A DNA stretch of 64,000 bases, taken from NCBI GenBank assembly GCA_021815445.1, contig JAKAGM010000002.1, positions 307,720 through 371,719 of the forward strand. The letters run 5' to 3'. Under the pieces are notes generated by a model. It saw only the letters and a program-made list of their open reading frames with translations. It had not been told where the DNA came from and ran no database searches. This stretch comes from a bacterium (GTDB lineage Bacteria > Patescibacteriota > Patescibacteriia > UBA10025). Shown piece by piece: positions 517 through 52,559 of the stretch. The translations under genes and the position numbers were made by a program. The first letter of the stretch is position 1; every line of letters begins with the position of its first letter.

Positions 517-534
517 TTCCACAGGTATCAATGA

Positions 535-560
535 AACGGCCGATCTCTTCGGCCGTTTTT
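535..560 (+). terminator. Rho-independent terminator after the cupredoxin gene
   Basis: GC hairpin ACGGCCGA-tctc-TTCGGCCGT followed by TTTTT, directly after the stop codon at 514-516. Confidence 0.7.
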
Positions 561-642: not shown

Positions 643-671
643 TTGACGTAACTGGGTATATCAGGATATAA
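643..671 (+). promoter_or_regulatory. Sigma70-like promoter for the primase-like gene
   Basis: TTGACG, a 17-nt spacer, then ATATAA. AGGAGGG sits before the ATG at 741. Confidence 0.35.
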
Positions 672-740
672 CAACGTAATCGTCCTTTTACAAATTTATC
701 GTCTTTCCACGAGTCAAAACCGAATGCAGGAGGGTCAGTC

Positions 741-3464
741 ATGAATGGGAACGCCGAATTTCCAGGGGTAACTCTGGACGATATCAGGCGCGTCCCCAAT
801 CCGACTCCTGCGTTTTGGAGTTGGATGTGGGATGCGTTCGCTAACGGCCGGCTTGATATTGCCGTGCAAGCGGCACTCAGCGCCGGACAGGCAACGGGTG
901 TCGAAAGCGCCCTATCGTTTTTGCAGGAATTGGGGAGCCGCTGTCAGGGCGAACCTTCAGCCGTGCACGTCGCGGACATTCAAAGGAAGCGACATTCCTC
1001 TCGGCATACCAGTACGCTACAGAAGATGTTAGGGGCGCCTACCTGGGCGAAGGATCCGCAGCTTATCTTAGGAGCACGCGGTCACGCCGTAGCCTCAGCA
1101 CTTTTGCGAGGAGCATACGATTCACATCGTAGTTCTTCCAAACATTACAAAGGTCCAGCCGGACAGCTTTCGTTATTTCCTCCCTTTGTTGATGTACCAC
1201 CCGGCGGGCAAACCAGACTTTTTTCTGGACCAGCCAGTTATAGTGAGCCACGGAATCCTCAAGGCGTCCGTCGGGCATCGTACCCAGTATTGATTCACCG
1301 CATCGAAAAGCACTGGGACGTCATTCGTAGGCTTATCGAGAATGGTGATCTCAACGCTTGGCGGACACGCAAAGGTGTAGTCCACAGGCTTGAACAAGCA
1401 ATCGAACAGATTGTCGGTGATCCGATCAACAAGCTCTGGCGAGAAGGGTGGGATCCCAGCGGCAACCTCGTTGTCCTCACCATCTTAAGCTGGGCGGCGA
1501 TGATTATCTCCCGCGGTCTGCAACGAATTCCCCACGCACTTTTTACTGAGATTGGAGTTCTCGGACAGCAGCATGGTTTGGGCGGCGGACGGATTGACGC
1601 AATTGAAGTGACTAGTATCAACGGTAAAAATCCGACTCCGTACCAGCAGAGGCTGCTTGGGATTCTCAGCAAAGGGCATTATCGATCCACAGGCCATTTG
1701 ATGAGAGTGCTCCTGGGGAATTTCCGCAACCCGGAGATCGTCGTTATCGACTGGAAATTTTTAGTCGGTGACATGATGAGTCGCGGATCCCAGCCTGATT
1801 TGCGCGCTCTTTGCGCCTCGCCCTTGTCTCACCACGAGGACCAGATGAGACGGTATTTAACGCTTATCCAGCTTGACTACCATCTCACTATTCGTCACCC
1901 CGAGCTCTGGCAGACAAATGAATTCTCGTTGCACGGGGAGCTTCATTACATCTTTCCGCACTGCAAACCTGTCGTTCACAACGTATCCATGACGCCCCAG
2001 GAGCTCGAGCAGTGGTTTGCGAATTCTGTGGCGCTTCGATGGTCGGCTGTCCAACGCCGAGCAATAGTACGCGTGGTAGACAACTTCATTATGGGAACGC
2101 TCGTCGGATTGCTCAACGGCCGTCCGCGGAAAAGAAACGGTACCCTGCACAACGGTGAAGCCGGTGAGCAGATTGAGCTCATACCAGCAGAGCCGCGAGT
2201 AACAGCTGCAACCATCGTTGAGCGAACTCAGGATTCCCACAGGAGGTTTGTTGATGAACATCAGATCATAGAGATTGTCGAGGAAAGACCATCGGGACAG
2301 GTCATCGAAATGCGACTGGATCGTCTTATGGAATGCGTCAGCCAGGGGTCTGTCTCAACGTTCGGGTTCTCCGCAGCACGTGGCGGAAAAATCCAATGTC
2401 TCATGCCTGGTCATCGGGACTCCACTTTCTCCCTGCAGGTGTATCTCGCTGATTTCCGTCCGCATTTTCACTGTTTCGGATGCGGGGCACACGGAAAAAT
2501 TGCGAGTGAATCAATTTCTCGCGAGTTTGCCCTTGCGTTCATTGCGAATCACCAAACTGACGCGCGTACAATTCAGCCGGTGACCAGCTCCCGACTGCCG
2601 GTCATTCCTGAAGAGCACCACCGTATCATGTCGTGCGCGCAAAAACTGCTTTCAGGAAATTTCTGGAACAGTGAGGGAGAGAGATACCTTGTGCAGACCC
2701 GCAAACTTGATGTTCAGCTCGCGTTTGAAAAGGGCGCGGGCTACGCCGATAGTCGGTTCATTTGCGCTCTCCTGGAGGAAGGGCTGACAGTTGATGAGCT
2801 GATCGTCTACGGATTCGTCGGTATTTCGCGCTCGGTATCCAGCCGACACGGACTAGCGCCGCTTCTGTTTGATCGCGGTTTCAAGCTTAACGAGATCAAG
2901 CGCCCGCTCCCCGGTTCAACTTCTGGGAAACCTATCTGGGGGATGCCGTATTCAACCCTTAACAACCGCGTCACCTTTCCGTTGACGCTTGAGGGGAGGG
3001 TTACCAATATCTATGGCCGGGCGGCGTACCGATGCGATAGAAGATTCTCGCATAGGAAGCTCTCGACCGAAAAGACAAAAGTTCCCCAAGGCGGATTCCA
3101 CATGGAAGCGCTCGAGGGAGAGGAAGGCGAGGTCGTAATCTCCGAAGGTGCGATTGATGCACTATCGCTCATCGAGCTCGGATGGCCCCGATCGCTGGCG
3201 ATGATAGGCGTCAGTAATACTGCCATCATCCGCGTCATGGCGCGGTCGCAGCGGAATTTCGCTATAGCGTTAGATAACGACGATACGGGAAGGAGGGAGA
3301 CAGCGAAGCTTGTAGAGCGACTCCGGGGCTTCGGATGGAAAGGCCAATCGCGCGACTTCACGGGCGAGTTTGTCCGACAACATCATGATCGCCAGTTCAA
3401 GGATTACAATGATTGGCTTATTGCTACCCGACTGCCGGCACCCGACGATGATCCGCCCTTTTAA
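741..3464 (+). CDS. DnaG-type primase (CHC2 zinc finger + TOPRIM) with a ~500-aa N-terminal extension of unknown function
   Basis: Primase zinc-binding motif CLMPGHRDSTFSLQV...HFHCFGCGAHGKI. A TOPRIM follows: VVISEGAIDALSL...FAIALDNDDTGRRE. The N-terminal half has no motif I recognise, apart from a possible PD-(D/E)xK-like pair (GRIDAIEV ... VVIDWKF). Confidence 0.6.
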   Translation: MNGNAEFPGVTLDDIRRVPNPTPAFWSWMWDAFANGRLDIAVQAALSAGQATGVESALSFLQELGSRCQGEPSAVHVADIQRKRHSSRHTSTLQKMLGAPTWAKDPQLILGARGHAVASALLRGAYDSHRSSSKHYKGPAGQLSLFPPFVDVPPGGQTRLFSGPASYSEPRNPQGVRRASYPVLIHRIEKHWDVIRRLIENGDLNAWRTRKGVVHRLEQAIEQIVGDPINKLWREGWDPSGNLVVLTILSWAAMIISRGLQRIPHALFTEIGVLGQQHGLGGGRIDAIEVTSINGKNPTPYQQRLLGILSKGHYRSTGHLMRVLLGNFRNPEIVVIDWKFLVGDMMSRGSQPDLRALCASPLSHHEDQMRRYLTLIQLDYHLTIRHPELWQTNEFSLHGELHYIFPHCKPVVHNVSMTPQELEQWFANSVALRWSAVQRRAIVRVVDNFIMGTLVGLLNGRPRKRNGTLHNGEAGEQIELIPAEPRVTAATIVERTQDSHRRFVDEHQIIEIVEERPSGQVIEMRLDRLMECVSQGSVSTFGFSAARGGKIQCLMPGHRDSTFSLQVYLADFRPHFHCFGCGAHGKIASESISREFALAFIANHQTDARTIQPVTSSRLPVIPEEHHRIMSCAQKLLSGNFWNSEGERYLVQTRKLDVQLAFEKGAGYADSRFICALLEEGLTVDELIVYGFVGISRSVSSRHGLAPLLFDRGFKLNEIKRPLPGSTSGKPIWGMPYSTLNNRVTFPLTLEGRVTNIYGRAAYRCDRRFSHRKLSTEKTKVPQGGFHMEALEGEEGEVVISEGAIDALSLIELGWPRSLAMIGVSNTAIIRVMARSQRNFAIALDNDDTGRRETAKLVERLRGFGWKGQSRDFTGEFVRQHHDRQFKDYNDWLIATRLPAPDDDPPF

Positions 3465-3581
3465 GTCTCTGTATGCAGGACACCTACATTTTGGTGACCT
3501 GCTTTTTTATTCCTATCTGATTTATTCGTTTCAAAAATATTTTTTCTTACGTCACTCCCCCCGATTTATCCACCTCATAAT

Positions 3582-17111: not shown

Positions 17112-17186
17112 CGCGGGGTAGAGCAGTAGCAGCTCGCCGGGCTCATAATCCGGAGGTCGTGGGTGCAAATCCCACCCCCGCAACCA
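17112..17186 (+). tRNA. tRNA-fMet (initiator, anticodon CAT), CCA encoded
   Basis: Cloverleaf with a C1·A72 mismatch and an A11:U24 pair, both initiator signatures. Anticodon loop CTCATAA. The 3' end is ...CCCCGCA-A-CCA. Confidence 0.75.
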
Positions 17187-17200
17187 ATTCGAAAAAATGC

Positions 17201-17274
17201 GGCAGGGTAGCTCAGCTGGTTAGAGCGTGGGACTCATAAGCCCAAGGTCGTGGGTTCGACCCCCACCCCTGCTA
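17201..17274 (+). tRNA. tRNA-Met elongator or tRNA-Ile2 (anticodon CAT), no encoded CCA
   Basis: Cloverleaf with a C11:G24 pair. T-arm GTGGGTTCGACCCCCAC. Anticodon loop contains CAT. Confidence 0.7.
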
Positions 17275-17334: not shown

Positions 17335-17470
17335 GCATATTGGGGCCGAAGGGCAGAAGCGATCCTGAGTGGAACGAAGGAGAGCGCCGACGAATGCGAA
17401 CGAGTGCAGTATTCGGCGCTGCCCGGGACAGACCCCCACCCCTACTACCAACCACGTACGAAATAATTGC

Positions 17471-41456: not shown

Positions 41457-44400
41457 TTGCGTTTCATCTCTCTAGGACAATTTAAGGAAAAAATCAAGCG
41501 AAACAAAAGGTTTGATTTTCGCTCTCTTCCGAAACTCCTCAGTCTCGAACAAGTGAGCGAGATTCTTGGCGTCCATCAAAATACCCTCCGCAACTGGGAC
41601 AACATCGGCAAGCTGAAATCTGTCAGGATTGGAAAGCGCCATGACAGGAAGTACGAACGTGATCGGATCGAGAAACTTTTCCTCGACATGCGCGCCTCAC
41701 AAGCAGGGGCAAAGAGAGACGCCCAGAAAAACGGAAAGAAACATAGGCGAGGCGCGGAGCGCAGGAATGAAGGCCCGCTTCTCGGCTTTTGGCTGATAGG
41801 GAATGTCCGTTCAGTGATCATCTATGGCCTTCTCGGATTGGTGGTTTTCTTTTTTTCTGTCCAGAACATGTCGCTTGGCAAGATACTCTTTGCCAGAGCG
41901 GAGAATGATGCGCTAGTAACCATGCGGCTACAGTCGGCAGATTGTTCCGGATGGCTCAATCCAGAAAAAGCAAGGTTTATCGACGCACTCGCGAAGACTC
42001 CGCTCGATGAATTCCTTGAGACCAATTCCGCGGTGTACTCAAATCAATTTGCTTTCCGCAGTGCAGGCCCCCCCGCGCTTAATGAAGTGCCCGGCCAGCC
42101 CGTGCAGCCCGAGAATACAGCGGCAAACACCAGCGCCGCACCGGTAAATGATGCGGCGGCTCCTCCCGCCAACACTGCTCCCGCACCCGTTCCATCCGCC
42201 GATCCTGCCCCGGCTTCTTCTGACCAGACGGCTCAGGTCAATCCGCAATTAATATGCCAGGGATATACGTTCGACCAGCCGGTCCCTGACGGTTCTCGCT
42301 TAGAAAAAGCGACCCTCGTAGTCTCGTTCGCGGCTGACACCTTTGCAAACAACGAAGACGTCGTTGATTTTTCTTACTCGTTCAACGGCAAGGACTGGAA
42401 GAAGCTCAGTTCTTTTGCCCTGCTCCAGGATATGAGCAATGCGACAAATGACGGCTACTTGTCCTATCCCATCGAAGTAAGCTCCTTCGATGATATTAAA
42501 AACCTCTCTGTCCGCGTCGACTACAACGCCTTTCCCGCGACTCAAGGTTCGAGAGCTTTTTTCGACGGCGCGGCGCTTGATGTCCTCATCCGCAAGCCCC
42601 CCCCTCCGAAGCTCGCGAATGAACTTACGCAAAGCACGACAATCGTAAAAGCCGACGTTGCCCCTTCAGAGGATCCGACGCTTGACGTCACAGTCGAAAA
42701 AAAATCAACCCTCGACTTCCTCGGGGTCGGTCCCACCACGCGCGACGTCCAGTCTGTGACAATCACCGATCCCGGCGGCAATACTAAGACAGTGAATCTT
42801 GATATCCAGGATAAGCAGGTAGGAAAGAATACCGTGGCTCAATATGTTATCCCAAAAGAAGATCTCTCCAGGCCTGGTCTCTATAAGGTGAGCATGCAGG
42901 TAGAACAGGACGGGTATATCCAAGAGGTTTCAAAAGAATTCAGCTGGGGAGTCATCGCAGTCAACGTGAGGTCCTCGGTCATCGAACCGGATACGTACAC
43001 CGAAGTCGGAATGTCGGTCCTCGATGACTTTGGGCACGCGCAGTGCGCCGCTTTCATCGAGGTGACGGTGCGCCATCCGGGAAATTTTGTGGAAAAATTC
43101 TCCACAACTGATAAAACAGTGGTAAAAAATCCCACCTGCAAGGACCAAAGTGTAACAAATGAGCCGGATTATTCGGCATTTTTTACCACAACGACAGTGG
43201 GGAAATATACCGTCGACGTTACGGCTACAACAGAGAAGGGGACGCACACCATTTCCGATTCTTTTGAAGTGAGAAGCAATCCGCAGTTTACCATCGAAAG
43301 GACTGAGTTTCCTACGCGCATTTTCCCTTTTGTGGATTACCCGGTCAAATTCACCGTCACCTCTCAGCAGGATTTCACGGGGGTCTTTATGGAAAAAGTC
43401 CCTGTCGGTTTCCAGATTTACGATATCACTCAGCGCGGGGCGGAGCTTGGCGGAAGTAACGACCCGCAGTATAAAGTCATCACCTGGCCGGTCGCTCTCA
43501 CCGCGGGGAAGCCGTACACGCTCGGGTACACGTTCAATCCCCCCGACCAGGTGCCTTTTCTGTATAAACTCGGGCCGGCAAATATCGGTAATTTTACGGA
43601 AGCCCGCCAGTGGCAGATTGCGTCTGATGCGGCATGCTCGTCCGCAGGATCCGGTGCCTGGACCACGACAGCCACCTGGTCTGGGTGCAGGGTAGGCGGA
43701 CCCATTGCCGGCGATACCGTACAGATTAATTCCGGGCACATGATTACGATTTCAAACAGTACCGCGGTAGCTGCAGCAAGTGTCACCATTATCACGAATA
43801 ACAGCGCCACGGTGAACGGTCTTACGTTCGGAAACTCGGGTTCTTCATTGGCTATTACTGGCGCCATTACCATCCCTGCGGCCACGGCGTCGGGCGGATC
43901 GCTCGTTGCCGTAGATGCCGGAAGCATTACCACTACAAGCGGGACCAGTTCAGTGTCCATATCAGGCGCAGCGGCGCTGACCAGTATTTTTAGAATTAGT
44001 ACAGGGTCTGTTACTTTGACTGGTGGCGTTACATTTGGTGGCACGCAATCGAATGCGCAGCTCACATTCACAGGCGCCGGTTCACTGACTATCGGGGCCG
44101 GCATGGGTACCGGAGGTACGTTTACCAAGAGCACGAGCACGGTCACCTTCAACGGCACCGGAGCGCAGAATATTACCGGGTATAACTACAACAACCTGGT
44201 GGTCAATAACGCCGGCTTGACGCTCACAACGGTTCAGGATGGCGCTAATACATTCACGGTGGGCGGCACCACGACAATTACTGCCGGCACGCTGACCATG
44301 GGAAACTTCGCGCACACCTTTACCGGCGCGACCTCGGTTACAGGAACCCTGAACACAAGTGGCGGCACTACGGGTAATCGGACATTTACCGGGGCAGTAA

Positions 44401-47400
44401 CGGTTAATAGTTCCGGTACGTGGGATTTATCCGGGCAAAATCCGGCGACAATTTTCGCAAACGGCATAACGGTCAGCACCGGGGCGACGTCATTCAATAA
44501 CGGCACCGGAACGGTAGCTTTTAACACAAATAACCAGGCGCTTGCGGGTTCCGTAGGTATGACTTTTGGCGGGACTGCGACTATAGCCAGCGGTGTTACA
44601 TTGACGAATAACAACACGGGCACGGTTAATTTCAGCGCGGCTACTAATTGCCTTACCGGCGCCAGCGCAACCTTATCGATTTTTACGACCGGGACCAATT
44701 CAACCACCCAATGCGCCAGCGCTCTTCTGGGTGCAGGCGGATCCAGCACCGGCTTGTTAAATCCTAGCGGTACCGGGAGCACAGTTGAGTACAACGGGGG
44801 CAGCCAGACGGTAAAAGCGCATAATAGTACGAATAATTATGTCAATATTAAGTTAAGCGGCTCAGGCACCAAGACGCTCACGACTACCGATGTTACGTAT
44901 ACCGGTAACTTCGATATTACCTGCTCGTCGGCCTGCTCGACTGCTCTTGTGGTCGCCAACACCGCTATCCAGGGTACCCTGACAGTCGGTGCAAACGCGA
45001 CCTTCACCGCCGGCGCATTCGCTCTCACGGTAACCGGGACCACCAATGTGCAAAATACCGGCGTTTTATCGATAACATCGGCCACCGGCACCAAGGCGTT
45101 TAACGGCGACGTCACAATCGACAACGGCGGGAGGTGGAGTGTCGCTATATCGGTCAACTTTACATTGCCGGGCAATTTGACAAACAACGGCACATTCACT
45201 CCCAGCACCGGCACCTATACGCTGTCAGGCGCAGGAAAAGCAATCTCCGGCACTTTTGCCAGCCCCTTTACCACCGTCACCCTCACCGGCGGCGGCGCTC
45301 AGAATAATGCGGGGACTTTTACAACGGCAACGCTGAATGTGAATGCCGCGTTTGCCAATACGGGAACGATTACTGTCACCTCGGCTTTGGCCGGGACAAA
45401 TACATTGACTAACAGCACGAATGGAAATTTGAATATTAATGTGGCGGCGGCGAGTTATACGCTCACCGGCCTTGCGGCAAGCGCCTCGGGTAATACAGTT
45501 TCATGGGGATTTGCCGGCGCGCAGACCGTCACTCCGTCGATTAGCTACTACAACCTTACTCTGGCCGGCAGTGGCGCCAAGACACTGACCAACGTAACTA
45601 CGGTTAGCAACAATCTCACTATGGCAGGTACAGCAACTGCCACTATTGTTACGGCCACCATGGCTATCGGCGGAGATTTGGTAGTGGGCGGAGGGACAAC
45701 TATCACTATCGGCGCCACTACGACTATCGGCGGCGGTGATATTACGACTTCCGGCACTTCGGCTACAGTGGGCACTTCAGGCACGCCGACAGTGACCATT
45801 TCCGGCACAGGGAGTCTCGGCGGCGGCACATCACCGGGCCTGACTTTTTACGACCTGACCATTTCTGGTACGCAGACTATCAACGACCCTTATGCCATGA
45901 CCATCAATCACACACTGACGGTCAACGGCACGCTTAACGGCACGGGAAGTCCCGCAACGCTGGGCAGTATCGTCGGTACGGGCACTATTACGATGGCCAG
46001 CCCGTCGGCGTGGCTCGTGTATCCAACTGCCTCAATTAATTTCGGCACCACTTCCGGCTCTACGGCATGGACATTCTATAGCATGACAGTGAGCGCCGTC
46101 CTTGCAAGCGCCGATGTCACTCTTACTACGCAGGCAGGCACCGGTGATATTACCTTTAATGGCACTTTGCAATTGTCCAGTTTTGGCGACTCGTTTTATA
46201 CCAATTTAAATGCCGGCGGCAGAAATTGGATTATGTCGGCTACGAATAATGCAAAGCCCTTTGAGCTCGATGTCGGCGGCGCCGGTGTCCTGATAGCCAG
46301 TACTTCTACGTTCCAATTTACGGGCAATAATGCCTCCGGCAATGTAACCCTGCAAAATGCCACATATAATAATCTGACTTTGGGCGGGGCATCCGCCGAA
46401 ACTTTTGACACTGAGGCCTCGCTGACGGTTTCCGGCACGCTGAACGTTGCCGCGAACGGCACTTTGGCCATCGGCAGTACGCACACCGTGACGCACAGCG
46501 GCGCCACATTGACCCTAGCCGGAATCATCTCCGGCGCCGGACGGCTGGCGTATCAGAGTGCCACGGCATTTCCTACTACGGGGACCATTTCATCGATCGT
46601 GCGATTCGATGCGACGAATAATGATCAAACAATGTCAGCCCGCACATACGGCGGCAACGTCGAGATTTACAACGTCAGCAGTTCATTTACGCGGGCCGTC
46701 ACCATGACCGCGACTGCTACCCAGGTGATCAGCGGCTCCCTAAGCATCAATGCCGCTGGAACTGCCGGGATCACCCTCGATGCATCGGTAAACAACCCGA
46801 CGGTCACTGTCGGGGGGAGTATCTCTTCAACAGCGGGCGGAGGGGGGCTTCAAGTGCTTTACGCAGGTACCGGCTCGTGGACTGTCGGCGCGAACTTCGA
46901 TATGACCAATATCCAGCTGACCGTAGGTACGGGAAACACGATTATAATGTCCGGTACGGGGACCTTTACTTCCGGTGGGTATAACATGCAAAATCTTACG
47001 CTCTCCGGAACTATTACACTTGCAAATGCCGCCCATACGGTATACGGCAACCTCGATATGACGGGGGGGACCATTACCGCCGGGACGTCAACAATGTATA
47101 TGAGAGGGACGGCAAATTTGGTTGGCGGCAACCAGAGTCTCTATAATCTGACCGCAAATGGTAACGCCAATACGCTGACCGTTACCTCCAATGTTACAGT
47201 GACGAATGTGTTGACTATCGGCTCGGTGGGGGACAACAACAACGATACGATGTCCATAAATGGCGGTATCAGCGTGACTTCCGGCACATCGGGTACCGTC
47301 ACGCTCTCGGGAAGCGGGACTGATACCATCTCCGGCGCGGGAACATTGGTAATGCAAAACTCCAACCTGAATACTCTCGGCGTTCTCTCTTCGAAGGTGA

Positions 47401-50400
47401 GATTCGATGCGACCAGCGGCGACATCAACATGCCTGCCCGCACGTACGGCGGCGCCGTAGAGATTTATAACAATCATGCAACCACTGCCCGCGTCGTCAC
47501 CATGCTCGCAACCGCCACGCAGACTCTTTCCGGCGATCTGACGGTCATCGCGGCCAACGGCGGTGACATCACTCTTGCCGGAGCTACATATAATCCTACC
47601 GTCAGCATTACAGGCAGTGTTGCATTTACCAAGAGCAGTACCGGAACGCCTATTATTACCACGGGCACTGGTACGTGGACAGTGGGCACAACGCTTGATT
47701 TGACCAACGGTACGTTTACCGCTGCGGCAACCAATACCGTGCTCATGGGCGGCACCGGCAATCTGATCGGAGCCGGCCAAACATTAATTAACCTCACGAT
47801 TGACGGAAACGGCAACACCGTTACCATAACTACTTCGGATATATCCGTCAGCGGGACGCTCACTATCGGCGGAGCGGCAGACGGTAATAACGATACGCTG
47901 TCGATAGGCTCGGGCAGGCTTGTCACCTCCACGTCCGCAGGCACTGTTACGCTTATTGGCAGCGGCACTGACACCATTTCCGGTACGGGGACTCTTGTCG
48001 TAAAAAACAATAATTTAGGCACGGCTGGGACACTCTCTGCTCCCGTCAGATTCGATGCGACAGCGGCAGATCTGACTATGCCCGCACGGACGTATGGGGG
48101 TGATGTGACAATTTACACATTTAAAGTTGTTGTCGATCGTACGGTTACTATGTCAGCAGGGACATATATCATCTCAGGAAACTTGGACATGAATCCTAAT
48201 AATCCTCAGGGAGGTGTGCGGGCATTAACGCTGGATGCCGCAACAAATGATCCCGCAGTAAATGTCACCGGAAACGTTACAAATTCAGAAACAGGGGTTC
48301 TGGGGTACTCGATTATATTAGCTGGAGCAGGTACATGGACGATTACGGGGTATGCAAATTTTCAAAGTCAATGGGGAACAGGAACTGATTTTTTAACCGA
48401 AACAAACAGCACGCTTGTGATGAACGGGACCTCAAAAACGCTGTACCCGGGCAACAACTTGACTCTGTATAATTTTACTAGCGGGGGCACAATCGCTGCC
48501 TCAGGCATGACTGTAAGTAATACTCTGTTGATATCTTCTGGTACATTAACTATGGATATGACTCTCTTGACCGTGGGGAACAACTTTACTAATAATGGCG
48601 CCTATACGGCTAGCTCAGGCACTGTAAATATGACCGGTACCAGCGGCTCCATAGGCGGATCGGCCTCCACGACATTTTATAACCTTTTGATTAATGGGAC
48701 GAATATCACAACTACGGTGAATACGAGCGCAACGGTAAGCGCTACGCTTACCGTCGGCGCCGCCGGCGACGGTAACAACGACGAGCTCTCTATCGCGAGC
48801 GGCAAGACGCTAACGTCCGCGACTACGGGCACCGTGACGCTCATCGGAAGCGGAACGGACTCAATCACGGGCTTAGGCACGTTAGTCGTGAGAAATTCGA
48901 ATTTAGAAGCCACCAATGGCACTATTTCCGCCAACGTCCAATTCAACGCATCGAGCGGGAGTATTAACATGCCTGCGCGGTCATACGGCGGAAATGTGGA
49001 AATATACAGCTCCGGAATATTGCCGCGCACGGTTACTATTGCATCATCCGGGACAGTCAACATCACCGGAAATCTTACCGTTACTGACGCCGGAACCGGT
49101 GTGTCATTGTCCGGGATGAACAATCCCACTGTGAATATCACCGGCAGCATAAATCCGTGTAATCCAGCCACCGACGCATTTATTACGACCGGAACCGGCG
49201 TATGGACGGTCTCTGCCGGCGCGGACTTTACTCTGTGCTCGCTTACTGCGACAAGCGGCAATACCCTCGTGATGAATGGCGCCGGCACGCTGAGAACCTC
49301 TGTAAATACCCTGCAAAATCTGACGCTCTCCGGTACAATAACCCTCGCCAATGAGGTAGAGACCATCGCAGGCAATCTCGACATGACCGGCGGAACGATT
49401 ACTCCCGGCACATCCACCATAGTAATGACCGGGACTAAAGATCTGATTGGTGGAAGCCAGACTCTTAATAATCTCACCATTAACGGAGTCAACACTACAG
49501 TCACAGCAAAGACTTCGAATCTCAGCGTCTCCGGCACCCTGACGATTGGCGGCGCAGCTGACGGCGATAACGACACATTCACGATCAACAGCGGTATCGC
49601 GGTAACCTCGGGAACTGCAGGTACCGTAACGCTCGTCGGCAGTGGCACCGACTCAATCACCGGTGCGGGAACACTCACTGTTCAAAATTCCAACCTTGGC
49701 ACAGGCGGGGTATTGTCCCCGATAGTACGGTTCGATGCCACAAACGGGGATATCGCAACGATGCCTGCGCGCACATACGGCGGGTTAGTGGAAATTTACA
49801 ACGGCCACGCCAGCACGGCGCGCACAGTGACCATGAGCGCTCTAGCCACCCAGACTCTCTCGGGAAACTTAAGCGTCATTGCAAATAGCGGAGGCAACAT
49901 CACGCTTATCGGCGCTCTAAACAATCCGACAGTCAACATCACCGGCGGCGTTTCGTTCGCCAAAAATAGCACGGGCACTATCACCGTCACTTCGGGCACG
50001 GGCACATGGAGCGTCGGCGGAGCAGTGAACTTTACCAACGGCACCTACACGGCGGCAACTGGTAATGTATTGGCGATGAGCGGCTCTGTCAATCTGATCG
50101 GGAACGGCCAAAGTCTCTATGACCTGAACGTGAACGGGACGACCAATACTGTCACGGCGACGACATCGGACGTCAGCATCGCTGGAACGCTCACGGTGGG
50201 ATCGGGCAACATATTGTCGATTGCATCCGGCCGCACGGTAACATATTCCGGGAGCGGGAATGTCGCCGGTACAGGTACTATCAGCGGCGCCGGAACCATT
50301 ACCTTTACTGATACATCCGGCGGTCCGGGGACGGCACTTACTACCCTGAGCGCTGTCTCGCGCTATGACGCGACAAACGGCAATATCGCCTCCACGACAT

Positions 50401-52559
50401 TGGATGCGAGGACGTACGGAGCAAGAGTTGAGATCTACAGCAATAGCACGACGGCGCGCACAGCTACCTTCGCGACTGGCACATATACGCTCTCCGGCGC
50501 ATCGTCACATCTCTACGTCATTGCCGACGGAGCATCTCCGGGTGATGTCACGCTTATCGGCGCCACGAATAATCCCACGGTAACTATAGGCGGAGATCTT
50601 GATTTCACCGGTGTGGGTACGGCAAGTGAAGCGATCACTTCGGGCACGGGGATATGGACGGCGTCAGGCAATGTGAATTTCACTGACGGCACGTACACGG
50701 CCACGGCGGGCAATACCCTCGTGATGAACGGCACATCAAAGACGCTTACCAGCGCATCACAGACGCTCTATAATGTCACGCTCTCAGGTTCCATCACCCT
50801 CGCAAATGCTACGCACACCATAGCGGGCAACCTTGACATGACCGGCGGCACAATTACCGCGGGAACGTCCACAGTGACGATGACCGGCACGTCGAATACC
50901 CTGAAGGGCGGCGGGAACACGCTGGCAAGTCTCACTATTGACCCTCCATCTGCGGGCACGATTACGCTCTCGACGTCAACGCTTGGCGCGGGAAATGTAT
51001 CGGTAGGCACGAATGGCATACTTGCCGGAACGGTTGATGTTACAGTGACGGGCAATGTTACCGGCGGCGGCGCTATCACTCTCACCGGCGGCACCTTCAA
51101 ACAGCTGGTGAATGCCACAAAGACATTTGGCACCGATGTCGCGTCTGCCAACGACTGGACATTCTATAATCTTTCTTTTGAGGCTGCGAGTACGACAAAG
51201 ACTATTACCTTTAACGGCACGGGAACAGGAAAAATTATCGCTACCAACGATTTAGCGACGGTCTTTAACACGGGATCTGTCGTTGTCGACGACGCAACGA
51301 ATGACCGTATCCTCCAGGTGAATGGGAACGTCAGCATTGTATCAAATACCGAGTTAAAAGCTCCCCCGGCAGCAGCTTTCTCTGTGGCCGGCAATTGGAC
51401 AAACGCGGGTACTTTTACCCCCGGGACCGGAACGGTCACATTCAATGCAACCACCGGAACAAAAACAATTGATACAAGTGCGGCCGCGGCGGGGAATTTC
51501 GGAAATGTTGTGCTGAACGATGGGGTAGGAAACGCGACGTTCCAAATTGCCAATGGGCCGATTACCGTGAATAACAATCTCACGATTACCCATGGGACGC
51601 TTGATACCGGCGCCGCGGGAAACTATGGGATCACTATCGGAGGTAATTGGACCAACAACGGAGTTTTTACGGCAAATAGCGGTCTCGTCACAGCAAATGG
51701 TACCAGCCAGCAGACATTTTCCGGGACGATGACGGGCAGTTCAAAGTTCAACAATCTGACCATTACCAATGTTTCCGGGACTGATCCCGATACCTCACCC
51801 TCGGTGATATTCGGTTCGAGTGCGCAGACCGGGGGCACGTTCACGGCAGCCACGGCCAACACGAAGCTCAGGTTCCTCGCAGGCGGCACCTTCACTTTCC
51901 AGAATATCAGCTTCAACGGCCAGGCAACGGGCACAAGAGTGTCGCTCCGCTCCTCCACATACGGGAGCGTGTGGAATATCAATGTCGCCGGCACGCGGAG
52001 CGTGTCGAATACCAATGTTGAAGATTCCGACGCCTGCGGGCAGGCGCCCGACATCGACGCATCAGATGGGACGAACGTCGATAAAGGCAACAACCATTGC
52101 TGGGATATCAACAGGATATCAGTGTCGCTCTCGGCCAATACAATCAACTTAGGCACCCTGAGCACGAGCACGGTGTCGCAGGGCTCCATGATTTCTACTG
52201 TGACGACAAATGCGCCCGACGGGTATGTCAGCGTTATTTACGATACCCAGGACTTCTCGACGGTAGGAGGGGGGACTATTGCGGATGCCGGCGGTTCTAT
52301 TACTAACGGCACCGCGGGGTACGGAGTATCGAGCTCCATGGCGAGCCAAACGGTTGCCCAGACGACGGGAGCATGTTCATCAGGCGCAGGGACCTTTAAT
52401 GCAACGAGCCTCACCGCGACTCCGCAGACATTCGCGTCGAGTGCCAGCGCTGTTACAGGCCAAGCGACGACGCTCTGTTTCCTGGCGACCCCGAGCGGCA
52501 CCACCGAAGCCGGCGGATACTCTGATACGGCGACTCTGGTGACCACAGGGAGGTTCTAG
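41457..52559 (+). CDS. Giant (3700 aa) membrane-anchored surface protein: N-terminal excisionase/MerR-type HTH, one TM, a Thr/Gly/Asn-rich beta-helix-like repeat region, and a conserved C-terminal domain ending LVTTGRF
   Basis: A continuous ORF whose track start is a TTG codon. The HTH_17-like segment is LSLEQVSEILGVHQNTLRNWDNIGKLKSVRIGKRHDRKY. A basic stretch then precedes the TM helix LLGFWLIGNVRSVIIYGLLGLVVFFF. At least six ~270-aa repeats carry the motif ARTYGG(N/A/D)VEIY. Confidence 0.7.
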   Translation: MRFISLGQFKEKIKRNKRFDFRSLPKLLSLEQVSEILGVHQNTLRNWDNIGKLKSVRIGKRHDRKYERDRIEKLFLDMRASQAGAKRDAQKNGKKHRRGAERRNEGPLLGFWLIGNVRSVIIYGLLGLVVFFFSVQNMSLGKILFARAENDALVTMRLQSADCSGWLNPEKARFIDALAKTPLDEFLETNSAVYSNQFAFRSAGPPALNEVPGQPVQPENTAANTSAAPVNDAAAPPANTAPAPVPSADPAPASSDQTAQVNPQLICQGYTFDQPVPDGSRLEKATLVVSFAADTFANNEDVVDFSYSFNGKDWKKLSSFALLQDMSNATNDGYLSYPIEVSSFDDIKNLSVRVDYNAFPATQGSRAFFDGAALDVLIRKPPPPKLANELTQSTTIVKADVAPSEDPTLDVTVEKKSTLDFLGVGPTTRDVQSVTITDPGGNTKTVNLDIQDKQVGKNTVAQYVIPKEDLSRPGLYKVSMQVEQDGYIQEVSKEFSWGVIAVNVRSSVIEPDTYTEVGMSVLDDFGHAQCAAFIEVTVRHPGNFVEKFSTTDKTVVKNPTCKDQSVTNEPDYSAFFTTTTVGKYTVDVTATTEKGTHTISDSFEVRSNPQFTIERTEFPTRIFPFVDYPVKFTVTSQQDFTGVFMEKVPVGFQIYDITQRGAELGGSNDPQYKVITWPVALTAGKPYTLGYTFNPPDQVPFLYKLGPANIGNFTEARQWQIASDAACSSAGSGAWTTTATWSGCRVGGPIAGDTVQINSGHMITISNSTAVAAASVTIITNNSATVNGLTFGNSGSSLAITGAITIPAATASGGSLVAVDAGSITTTSGTSSVSISGAAALTSIFRISTGSVTLTGGVTFGGTQSNAQLTFTGAGSLTIGAGMGTGGTFTKSTSTVTFNGTGAQNITGYNYNNLVVNNAGLTLTTVQDGANTFTVGGTTTITAGTLTMGNFAHTFTGATSVTGTLNTSGGTTGNRTFTGAVTVNSSGTWDLSGQNPATIFANGITVSTGATSFNNGTGTVAFNTNNQALAGSVGMTFGGTATIASGVTLTNNNTGTVNFSAATNCLTGASATLSIFTTGTNSTTQCASALLGAGGSSTGLLNPSGTGSTVEYNGGSQTVKAHNSTNNYVNIKLSGSGTKTLTTTDVTYTGNFDITCSSACSTALVVANTAIQGTLTVGANATFTAGAFALTVTGTTNVQNTGVLSITSATGTKAFNGDVTIDNGGRWSVAISVNFTLPGNLTNNGTFTPSTGTYTLSGAGKAISGTFASPFTTVTLTGGGAQNNAGTFTTATLNVNAAFANTGTITVTSALAGTNTLTNSTNGNLNINVAAASYTLTGLAASASGNTVSWGFAGAQTVTPSISYYNLTLAGSGAKTLTNVTTVSNNLTMAGTATATIVTATMAIGGDLVVGGGTTITIGATTTIGGGDITTSGTSATVGTSGTPTVTISGTGSLGGGTSPGLTFYDLTISGTQTINDPYAMTINHTLTVNGTLNGTGSPATLGSIVGTGTITMASPSAWLVYPTASINFGTTSGSTAWTFYSMTVSAVLASADVTLTTQAGTGDITFNGTLQLSSFGDSFYTNLNAGGRNWIMSATNNAKPFELDVGGAGVLIASTSTFQFTGNNASGNVTLQNATYNNLTLGGASAETFDTEASLTVSGTLNVAANGTLAIGSTHTVTHSGATLTLAGIISGAGRLAYQSATAFPTTGTISSIVRFDATNNDQTMSARTYGGNVEIYNVSSSFTRAVTMTATATQVISGSLSINAAGTAGITLDASVNNPTVTVGGSISSTAGGGGLQVLYAGTGSWTVGANFDMTNIQLTVGTGNTIIMSGTGTFTSGGYNMQNLTLSGTITLANAAHTVYGNLDMTGGTITAGTSTMYMRGTANLVGGNQSLYNLTANGNANTLTVTSNVTVTNVLTIGSVGDNNNDTMSINGGISVTSGTSGTVTLSGSGTDTISGAGTLVMQNSNLNTLGVLSSKVRFDATSGDINMPARTYGGAVEIYNNHATTARVVTMLATATQTLSGDLTVIAANGGDITLAGATYNPTVSITGSVAFTKSSTGTPIITTGTGTWTVGTTLDLTNGTFTAAATNTVLMGGTGNLIGAGQTLINLTIDGNGNTVTITTSDISVSGTLTIGGAADGNNDTLSIGSGRLVTSTSAGTVTLIGSGTDTISGTGTLVVKNNNLGTAGTLSAPVRFDATAADLTMPARTYGGDVTIYTFKVVVDRTVTMSAGTYIISGNLDMNPNNPQGGVRALTLDAATNDPAVNVTGNVTNSETGVLGYSIILAGAGTWTITGYANFQSQWGTGTDFLTETNSTLVMNGTSKTLYPGNNLTLYNFTSGGTIAASGMTVSNTLLISSGTLTMDMTLLTVGNNFTNNGAYTASSGTVNMTGTSGSIGGSASTTFYNLLINGTNITTTVNTSATVSATLTVGAAGDGNNDELSIASGKTLTSATTGTVTLIGSGTDSITGLGTLVVRNSNLEATNGTISANVQFNASSGSINMPARSYGGNVEIYSSGILPRTVTIASSGTVNITGNLTVTDAGTGVSLSGMNNPTVNITGSINPCNPATDAFITTGTGVWTVSAGADFTLCSLTATSGNTLVMNGAGTLRTSVNTLQNLTLSGTITLANEVETIAGNLDMTGGTITPGTSTIVMTGTKDLIGGSQTLNNLTINGVNTTVTAKTSNLSVSGTLTIGGAADGDNDTFTINSGIAVTSGTAGTVTLVGSGTDSITGAGTLTVQNSNLGTGGVLSPIVRFDATNGDIATMPARTYGGLVEIYNGHASTARTVTMSALATQTLSGNLSVIANSGGNITLIGALNNPTVNITGGVSFAKNSTGTITVTSGTGTWSVGGAVNFTNGTYTAATGNVLAMSGSVNLIGNGQSLYDLNVNGTTNTVTATTSDVSIAGTLTVGSGNILSIASGRTVTYSGSGNVAGTGTISGAGTITFTDTSGGPGTALTTLSAVSRYDATNGNIASTTLDARTYGARVEIYSNSTTARTATFATGTYTLSGASSHLYVIADGASPGDVTLIGATNNPTVTIGGDLDFTGVGTASEAITSGTGIWTASGNVNFTDGTYTATAGNTLVMNGTSKTLTSASQTLYNVTLSGSITLANATHTIAGNLDMTGGTITAGTSTVTMTGTSNTLKGGGNTLASLTIDPPSAGTITLSTSTLGAGNVSVGTNGILAGTVDVTVTGNVTGGGAITLTGGTFKQLVNATKTFGTDVASANDWTFYNLSFEAASTTKTITFNGTGTGKIIATNDLATVFNTGSVVVDDATNDRILQVNGNVSIVSNTELKAPPAAAFSVAGNWTNAGTFTPGTGTVTFNATTGTKTIDTSAAAAGNFGNVVLNDGVGNATFQIANGPITVNNNLTITHGTLDTGAAGNYGITIGGNWTNNGVFTANSGLVTANGTSQQTFSGTMTGSSKFNNLTITNVSGTDPDTSPSVIFGSSAQTGGTFTAATANTKLRFLAGGTFTFQNISFNGQATGTRVSLRSSTYGSVWNINVAGTRSVSNTNVEDSDACGQAPDIDASDGTNVDKGNNHCWDINRISVSLSANTINLGTLSTSTVSQGSMISTVTTNAPDGYVSVIYDTQDFSTVGGGTIADAGGSITNGTAGYGVSSSMASQTVAQTTGACSSGAGTFNATSLTATPQTFASSASAVTGQATTLCFLATPSGTTEAGGYSDTATLVTTGRF
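46600..50500 (+). repeat. Tandem ~640-890-nt coding repeats inside the giant gene
   Basis: The ARTYGGxVEIY-containing units recur at about 46631, 47444, 48083, 48975, 49762 and 50407. Confidence 0.6.

Follow-up and report, generated by a model that had tools for sequence, protein, structure and literature searches.

A DnaG-type primase fused to a putative RecB-like nuclease module with a predicted clamp-binding peptide in Patescibacteria

A DnaG-type primase with a large N-terminal module

The stretch of Patescibacteria DNA analysed here, hereafter the window, covers 64,000 nucleotides (nt) (assembly GCA_021815445.1, contig JAKAGM010000002.1, positions 307,720 to 371,719) and carries close to its left end a gene for a protein of 907 amino acids (aa), in which an N-terminal module of about 530 residues (N-module) is joined to a primase (Table 1). 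The C-terminal half of the protein is a DnaG-type primase with its catalytic motifs intact and without a DnaB-binding domain, whereas the core of the N-module is probably a RecB-like PD-(D/E)xK nuclease and is preceded by a flexible loop with a predicted clamp-binding-type peptide.

Several searches converge on the primase half. Pfam finds Toprim_2 at aa 799-873 (5.7e-11) as well as Toprim_3, and Zn_ribbon_DnaG at aa 548-587 with 2.8e-4, which is under the gathering score for this single sequence. Residues C553, C578, and C581 are invariant among the 101 long members of the family described below, and a profile of these 101 members matches the zinc-binding and RNA-polymerase domains of Aquifex DnaG (2au3) at 1.6e-25, together with the 1d0q zinc-binding domain and other DnaG catalytic cores. 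PHROG primase families match the same half. An AlphaFold 2 (AF2) model built from the 101-sequence alignment reached a predicted local distance difference test score (pLDDT) of 88.7 and a predicted template modelling score (pTM) of 0.86 (pLDDT was 36 with an alignment of three sequences), and a Foldseek search with this model returned DnaG RNA-polymerase structures, T4 gp61, and T7 gp4. The high pTM suggests that the N-module and the primase half pack against each other. Segments RVTFPL, EGAID, and DNDDTG of the window protein align with RIIFPI, EGQMD, and DNDVAG of a canonical DnaG from the candidate phyla radiation (CPR). The chain ends only 11 residues beyond the last TOPRIM helix of the model, and DnaB_bind has no Pfam match in the 907-aa protein, while the canonical CPR DnaG of locus L012 does match it. 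The initial annotation, made from the DNA letters, had called a clear CHC2 zinc finger and TOPRIM and no DnaB-interacting C-terminal domain, and on both counts it was right.

The open reading frame (ORF) is a real, monocistronic gene flanked by two intrinsic terminators. Its Met1 is in register with the N-termini of homologues, and a protein 100% identical to it (P0001) is encoded in the metagenome-assembled genome (MAG) GCA_027341205.1, contig DAIENG010000002.1. The hairpin behind the upstream cupredoxin gene (-22 kcal/mol, z = -4.5, with equally good folding in 0 of 200 shuffles) isolates the primase gene from upstream transcription. A near-consensus promoter-like site precedes the gene; it was missed by a stricter consensus scan because its -10 hexamer ends in C. 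The earlier description of a gene standing alone, with its own promoter and terminator, therefore agrees with what we find, with the reservation that the promoter fails the stricter rule. On two short metagenome contigs the family gene appears as two overlapping ORFs (L044 460-2369 and L047 695-2694), which could reflect a frameshift, a sequencing error, or pseudogenisation.

The N-module, its putative nuclease core, and the clamp-binding-type loop

The N-terminal ~530 aa, whether of the window protein or of 49 diverse members, matched nothing in Pfam, NCBIfam, PHROGs, PADLOC, or PDB sequences, and neither a profile of the N-module core nor 38 excised cores gave a significant match in Pfam, PHROGs, or PDB sequences. 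A word-indexed search brought up just two relatives, at 35-36% identity. An exhaustive HMMER search of 1.84 billion representatives with a profile of residues 1-530 (clusters at 50% identity) found ~197 clusters that share the N-module, 117 of them at E <= 1e-30. Among the 150 listed of these 197 clusters, 101 are at least 840 aa long (mostly 860-980 aa), and the fused architecture is the norm because zinc-finger cysteines and primase motifs are kept in these 101 long members. About one fifth of those listed (28/150) measure 440-530 aa and have no primase; these stand-alone N-modules of ~480 aa are genuine genes with no primase ORF adjoining. The N-terminal half is no orphan extension but a module conserved across the family. 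The initial annotation had described it as an uncharacterised ~500-aa half with a possible PD-(D/E)xK-like pair, and this holds, in that the databases are blank and D286, K339, and Y372 are invariant family-wide. It had proposed a search with residues 1-500; the searches made here with the N-terminal ~530 aa found relatives and did not lead to any known domain.

In RecB-family PD-(D/E)xK nucleases a motif I glutamate is followed by motif II (G-x-h-D), motif III ((D/E)xK), and then QxxxY. Across the N-module family, G111, H115, D286, K339, G343, D344, and Y372 are invariant, and D79, E270, G283, R284, D337, P361, H365, Q368, and Y403 are conserved in at least 90% of members. The AF2 model places E270 on strand 1 (267-272), D286 at the opening of strand 2 (284-293), and D337-x-K339 on strand 3 (331-340), after which H365, Q368, and Y372 lie in a long helix (363-384) that is followed by two further strands. 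The nuclease domain of E. coli RecB (GFIDLVF / LLDYKSNWLGED / H..QYQLY) served as the comparison domain, and the span from (D/E)xK to QxxxY has a median of 30 in both the N-module family and RecB. An extended signature (D-x-K, h-G-(x)-D/E, H, QxxxY), which was defined post hoc, is found in 112 of the 150 listed family members and 17 of 25 RecB domains, compared with 0/459 neighbouring ORFs, 0/120 TopA proteins, and 0/7,600 shuffled cores; a six-frame scan of the window gave the gene at 741-3464 as its sole match.

Profile comparisons of the same core were not significant. Aligned by hhalign with a RecB nuclease-domain profile and with two CPR Cas4-like proteins, it gave E = 0.12-0.22, with motif III as the sole core of each alignment, and Pfam nuclease models matched one of 49 members marginally (0.019) and none of 38 cores. 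The N-module is thus not a demonstrated member of PF12705; it is probably a RecB-like nuclease, with the activity predicted from residue conservation and the model. The invariant G111 and H115 and the near-invariant D79 belong to the helical region in front of this core. An HEPN-like Rx4-6H reading of the G111/H115 region was rejected, as the Arg is unconserved in the closest members. Behind the core, a disordered linker (aa 466-476 in the AF2 model) precedes the connector to the zinc finger.

The loop between the helical region and the putative nuclease is the sole long low-confidence segment of the AF2 model, and it is conserved at a pentapeptide alone, with unconserved flanks. This peptide, absent from the initial annotation, reads QLSLF in the window protein, QLDLF in P0002, and QLALF in P0003. 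Over the 101 sequences, its columns hold Q in 86, L in 46 (plus I/M), any residue, L in 57 (plus F/I), and F in 75 (plus L), and a second LF lies ~15 residues downstream in ~55-60% of members. The canonical beta-clamp-binding motif is QL[S/D]LF, revised to Q-phi-x-[L/M]-[F/L]; the preprint that summarises both forms also reports clamp binding by the E. coli RecB nuclease domain (bioRxiv 10.1101/2025.08.20.671105). The strict clamp motif shows a 70-fold enrichment in the loop relative to the remainder of the proteins and occurs in 34 of 101 members vs 0.7 in shuffled loops; the corresponding values are 72/101 vs 12.8 for a loose motif and 34/101 vs 1.4 for the revised consensus. Stand-alone N-modules carry the strict motif in 6 of 26 cases and the loose one in 15 of 26. 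The flexible loop thus presents a conserved clamp-binding-type peptide, by which the protein is predicted to bind the clamp.

Table 1. Features of the gene in the window (nt positions of the window) and of neighbouring genes named in the text (positions within the locus indicated)
Feature	Residues (aa)	Position (nt)	Strand	Basis or remark
Intrinsic terminator of upstream cupredoxin gene (stop codon 514-516)		533-560	+	hairpin GAAACGGCCG...CGGCCGUUUUU
Promoter-like site TTGACG-18 nt-TATAAC (putative promoter)		643-672	+	10/12 vs sigma-70 consensus; direct indexing
Ribosome-binding site GGAGG, 7 nt 5' of ATG		729-733	+	direct indexing
Whole ORF, nuclease-like N-module + DnaG-type primase	1-907	741-3464	+	ATG start
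N-terminal helical region	1-131	741-1133	+	helices 12-122 (AF2); family conservation
Disordered loop	132-175	1134-1265	+	pLDDT below 50 (AF2)
Clamp-binding-type motif QLSLF	142-146	1164-1178	+
Second clamp-binding-type motif QTRLF	157-161	1209-1223	+
Putative RecB-like PD-(D/E)xK nuclease module	181-458	1281-2114	+	conserved residues, AF2 strand/helix order, signature scan
Putative nuclease residue	E270	1548-1550	+
Putative nuclease residue	D286	1596-1598	+
Putative nuclease residues	D337-W-K339	1749-1757	+
Putative nuclease residues	G343-D344	1767-1772	+
Putative nuclease residues	H365..Q368xxxY372	1833-1856	+
Small alpha/beta connector between N-module and zinc finger	489-535	2205-2345	+	AF2 model
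CHC2 zinc-binding domain	540-590	2358-2510	+	Pfam, family alignment, profile; C553, H558, C578, C581 (2397-2483)
DnaG RNA-polymerase domain	624-896	2610-3428	+	Pfam, NCBIfam, PHROGs, profile, Foldseek
Primase motif RVTFPL		2967-2984	+	alignment to canonical CPR DnaG
Primase motifs	YGR760, HRK773		+
TOPRIM	796-896	3126-3428	+	within RNA-polymerase domain
Primase motif	E802-G-x-x-D806	3144-3158	+	alignment to canonical CPR DnaG
Primase acidic motif	D845-x-D847-x-x-G850	3273-3290	+
Primase acidic motif	D888-x-N890	3402-3410	+
Intrinsic terminator, hairpin + U6, 11 nt past stop codon of primase gene		3475-3508	+	-15.5 kcal/mol, z = -2.96
Two tandem tRNA-Met(CAT) genes		17112-17274
GIY-YIG protein		L013 6557-7471; L014 8807-9655; L019 9797-10642; L035 2740-3624; L046 2520-3377
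Solo Cas4-like PDDEXK_1 nuclease, 257 aa		L010 1720-2493; L016 1748-2521	-	GTMDCLAEL / LDIKTS / QTAAY

Distribution and genomic setting

Every taxon-labelled member of the N-module family is from Patescibacteria (labels are available for a fraction of members). The search pattern was carried by 16 of 185,579 GTDB species representatives, and all 16 loci belong to Patescibacteria (Saccharibacteria, Paceibacterota, Nomurabacteria, Yanofskybacteria, and Minisyncoccia); 18 further loci are from metagenomes, several of them from the Hainich 'Hain-H4x' sampling sites according to contig names. Core CPR genes outnumber the family by orders of magnitude: TopA has >8,000 close relatives, and the family has ~197 clusters. 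The TopA of the window shares 84% identity with its nearest relative, 72-75% with proteins labelled Patescibacteria group/Kerfeldbacteria, and 67-68% with those of Kaiserbacteria, Pacebacteria, and Paceibacterota. TopA, DprA, Mfd, Der, RelA/SpoT, and LytR mark the remainder of the window as core chromosome.

No neighbour or operon partner is universally conserved among 35 non-redundant loci. Within 5 kb, the recurring Pfam families are of housekeeping type, namely TrxB-like, FtsZ/FtsA, Obg, MurB, IF-3, YbeY, and ABC transporters. A GIY-YIG protein of ~285 aa, with the C-terminal signature GVYxI...VYVGKS...R...E...N and repeated N-terminal 'L.F..PF' motifs, lies directly 3' of the family member on the same strand in five non-redundant loci and, within one subclade, may be its functional partner. 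In two Paceibacteria-type genomes, a gene for a solo Cas4-like nuclease runs convergently to the family gene and abuts its 3' end. NUDIX adjoins stand-alone forms in two loci, UDG and HhH-GPD are found once each, and one stand-alone form sits beside HicAB, PemK, and a transposase. A VirD4/TraG-like ATPase is encoded a few kb from the family gene in three loci.

The 10 kb upstream of the gene (L001 1-9330, mostly outside the window) encode heliorhodopsin, Nramp, Cyt-b5, DsbB, UbiA, a cupin, and an FAD/Rieske oxidoreductase of 723 aa, so that the neighbourhood is unusually rich in redox functions for CPR. Between ~4.1 and 14.3 kb of the window are a redoxin, multiple DsbD-type membrane proteins, and a BlaI/BlaR1-type pair (Penicillinase_R + Peptidase_M56), behind which come HMA-domain proteins, two cupredoxins, and one P-type ATPase; these genes are the copper/redox cluster of the initial annotation. 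The last 13 nt of the second tRNA-Met (GACCCCCACCCCT) recur at 17431, 157 nt downstream of the tRNA pair. This copy may be a coincidence or what is left of an att-like repeat 3' of the pair, and the 0-17 kb side has nothing similar.

Two observations concern the window as a whole. Its sole compositional outlier is a 3,700-aa ORF at 41457-52559 (+), with a tetranucleotide z of up to 3.2 and a GC content of about 0.54-0.55, presumably a giant repetitive surface protein; such proteins are common in CPR genomes. The cumulative GC skew over positions 1-64000 has its minimum near 7-8 kb and its maximum near 41 kb, turning points that do not simply track the coding strand.

Possible roles and relation to known systems

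The initial annotation suggested that the 0.1-17 kb block may be a horizontally acquired metal-resistance island and called the placement of the gene typical of replication and mobilisation proteins, so that the protein would serve an acquired copper/redox island, plasmid, phage, or integrative and conjugative element bounded by the tRNA-Met pair. A monocistronic gene with its own terminators would suit this, as would a DnaG-type primase without a helicase domain, which is typical of plasmid and phage primases; a VirD4/TraG-like ATPase is near the family gene in three loci, as mentioned, and copper-resistance clusters are often mobile. The composition, however, is typical: the gene has a tetranucleotide z of about -0.8 and a GC content at third codon positions of 0.57 (vs 0.55-0.64), and the 0-17 kb block, with typical GC, has a tetranucleotide distance of 0.122, inside the range of other 17-kb blocks (0.095-0.247). 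There is no integrase in the 10 kb upstream of the gene. Neither tRNA-Met is repeated anywhere between -9 kb and +17 kb, and relative to these tRNA genes the block sits on the 5' side. The homologues are found among varied housekeeping genes: copper genes are present in none of the 35 loci, the recurrent neighbour families include no integrase, transposase, phage, or conjugation family, and in no other genome is the copper/redox cluster linked with the primase family. No relatives were found in IMG/VR viral contigs or 50,697 phage genomes, and 72,556 plasmids gave no N-module relative and one TOPRIM-only match. A metagenome scan with the upstream FAD/Rieske gene, used as an indel test of the island idea, returned no relatives; the FAD/Rieske protein has no close relatives in JGI metagenomes. 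The mobile-element reading of the gene is not supported, and we regard it as extremely unlikely.

A second reading, which the initial annotation had itself named as the one that would overturn its own, makes the protein the housekeeping primase of its lineage with a lineage-specific N-terminal extension. In its favour, relatives do keep the N-module fused to the primase, the context is chromosomal at all loci, no other primase is encoded within the 64-kb window, and CPR genomes are reduced and unusual. Its other part, the status of sole primase, is contradicted in at least one genome, a Minisyncoccia MAG in which the family member is followed, after 3.7 kb, by a canonical 569-aa dnaG (L012 8302-10011, also L036 14376-16085; Zn_ribbon_DnaG 1e-31, DNAG_N 1e-32, Toprim, DnaB_bind). 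The window protein scores 45 bits against the TIGR01391 dnaG equivalog, whose cutoff is 283.6; the helicase-binding domain is absent, the family is as rare as described above both among the 1.84 billion representatives and among GTDB species, and the primase is missing altogether from the stand-alone representatives. This reading is largely refuted and very improbable. Both the island and the housekeeping readings are disfavoured. The gene appears to be an accessory one, carried on the chromosome and belonging to a family confined to CPR.

Our preferred explanation, to which we give a probability of about 0.5, is that the protein is an accessory nuclease-primase which co-exists with an ordinary dnaG and is recruited by the clamp to restart replication or to repair DNA. 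Wherever DnaN rings have stayed on DNA, at primer ends, gaps, or stalled forks, the QLxLF peptide would dock the enzyme on them, standing in for the usual helicase-mediated recruitment of primase; the RecB-like nuclease would trim or open a DNA end or flap, and the primase would then prime the single strand thus exposed with RNA, DnaB not being required. In this way repriming, restart, or gap repair would proceed independently of the helicase. Neighbours of DNA-repair type in subsets of loci (GIY-YIG, NUDIX, UDG, HhH-GPD, Cas4-like) are in keeping with such a role. Several points weigh against it. The N-module has no statistically significant sequence or profile link to any PD-(D/E)xK family, and the RecB-type extended signature is post hoc. 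The strict clamp consensus is present in ~1/3 of members and the loose one in ~70%, with the Q and F columns at 85% and 74%, and short linear motifs can be fortuitous. No conserved partner gene points to any one pathway, and neighbours of DNA-repair type are in the minority. A conflict or defence gene would be equally compatible with the patchy distribution and with the 36-39% identity to the nearest relative, compared with 84% for TopA.

The main alternative is accordingly a single-gene anti-phage or anti-plasmid defence system, in which the nuclease would act as effector, the DnaG-like part as sensor or as maker of aberrant primers, and the clamp motif would direct the protein to foreign DNA under replication. 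Beyond the patchy distribution and the divergence just mentioned, the best PADLOC matches are DRT-associated DnaG-like proteins, named for defence-associated reverse transcriptases (RTasDnaG-like 1e-16, RT_UG29 4e-13), one stand-alone form has HicAB, PemK, and a transposase beside it, and nucleases (GIY-YIG, Cas4-like) are neighbours in some loci. However, the PADLOC matches are confined to the generic primase part and reflect the generic DnaG fold, because the N-module is unmatched; neither the N-module, nor the stand-alone forms, nor the recurrent neighbours match any PADLOC 2.0 defence model. The neighbours are mostly housekeeping genes and not defence islands, the primase catalytic motifs are conserved together with a replication-type clamp motif, and phage or plasmid relatives are lacking, unlike for many defence or counter-defence genes. 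We therefore consider a defence role unlikely. It is rather more doubtful still that the N-module is no nuclease at all and serves as a DNA-binding or protein-interaction scaffold (e.g., a clamp or SSB adaptor) that targets the primase. The lack of significant similarity to any nuclease family and the conserved linear motif, which suggests an adaptor, would agree with a scaffold, but D286, K339, D344, Y372, E270, D337, H365, and Q368 match the RecB family in order, spacing, and secondary-structure positions, and the N-module is also found as a stand-alone protein.

Taken one step further, the accessory nuclease-primase reading would mean that CPR possess a hitherto unrecognised helicase-independent priming route, in which one clamp-recruited polypeptide has its RecB-like nuclease process the end and its DnaG core reprime; this extension we put forward tentatively, as something that may well prove wrong. 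DnaG-type primases are thought to reach DNA via the replicative helicase. If the preferred explanation is true, a clamp peptide and a nuclease in place of the helicase-binding domain would represent a different coupling of priming to DNA processing. Under the tentative extension, the protein would be the functional equivalent, in bacteria, of eukaryotic enzymes for repriming and end processing, no other primase being known to be tethered to the clamp, and the ~480-aa N-module would constitute a new family of clamp-binding nucleases that also act alone. The nuclease, primase, and DnaN-binding predictions are directly testable with recombinant protein. Patescibacteria have minimal genomes and an episymbiotic lifestyle, and almost all are uncultivated; to the sparse knowledge of their replication and repair our analysis adds an unannotated family of ~200 clusters whose N-module is outside Pfam. 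It also corrects a tempting mis-annotation, by which 'DNA primase' would be read as dnaG or as the marker of a mobile element.

Compared with bacterial DnaG (TIGR01391; 2au3, 1dd9, 4edg), the protein has the same succession of a CHC2 zinc-binding domain and an RNA-polymerase domain with TOPRIM, and R-h-h-FP-h...GR, EGxxD, DxDxxG, and the final acidic motif are all conserved. Unlike DnaG, it has no DnaB-binding domain and a 530-aa N-terminal module, is rare and accessory, and shows only ~21% identity. A zinc finger and TOPRIM core without a DnaB-binding domain is shared with phage DnaG-type primases (T4 gp61; PHROG 47, 849, 6444), and plasmid primases of the RP4 TraC type are also DnaG-type enzymes without a helicase domain. 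In contrast to these phage and plasmid enzymes, the N-module family is chromosomal and set in a housekeeping context, and the phage, plasmid, and viral collections hold no N-module. The DRT-associated DnaG-like proteins resemble the window protein over the zinc-finger and TOPRIM region, whereas there is no reverse transcriptase in the latter or near it.

On the nuclease side, RecB-family enzymes (RecB/AddAB, Cas4, PF12705) share with the N-module the order of motifs, the D-x-K to QxxxY span, and the positions of G-D and His, and the RecB nuclease domain has been reported to bind the beta-clamp (bioRxiv 10.1101/2025.08.20.671105). The N-module differs in a ~50-residue two-helix insertion between motifs II and III, in its large helical N-terminal region, in the absence of significant profile similarity, and in being fused to a primase instead of a helicase; unlike in Cas4, no Cas4-type Fe-S cysteines are conserved. 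NucS/EndoMS is a RecB-like nuclease brought to DNA by a short sliding-clamp-binding peptide. It is a small dimer with two domains, lacks a primase, and bears its clamp motif at the C-terminus; no sequence similarity to it was detected, and its likeness to the proposed clamp-tethered N-module is functional only. A Cas4 phylogenomics paper gives helicase and Cas1 fusions and no primase fusion, and the searchable literature yielded no account of a CPR protein that fuses a nuclease to DnaG, or of the N-module. The component parts belong to known superfamilies; what is unusual is that a clamp peptide and a RecB-like nuclease are combined with a DnaG core independent of the helicase, and that this combination is restricted to CPR.

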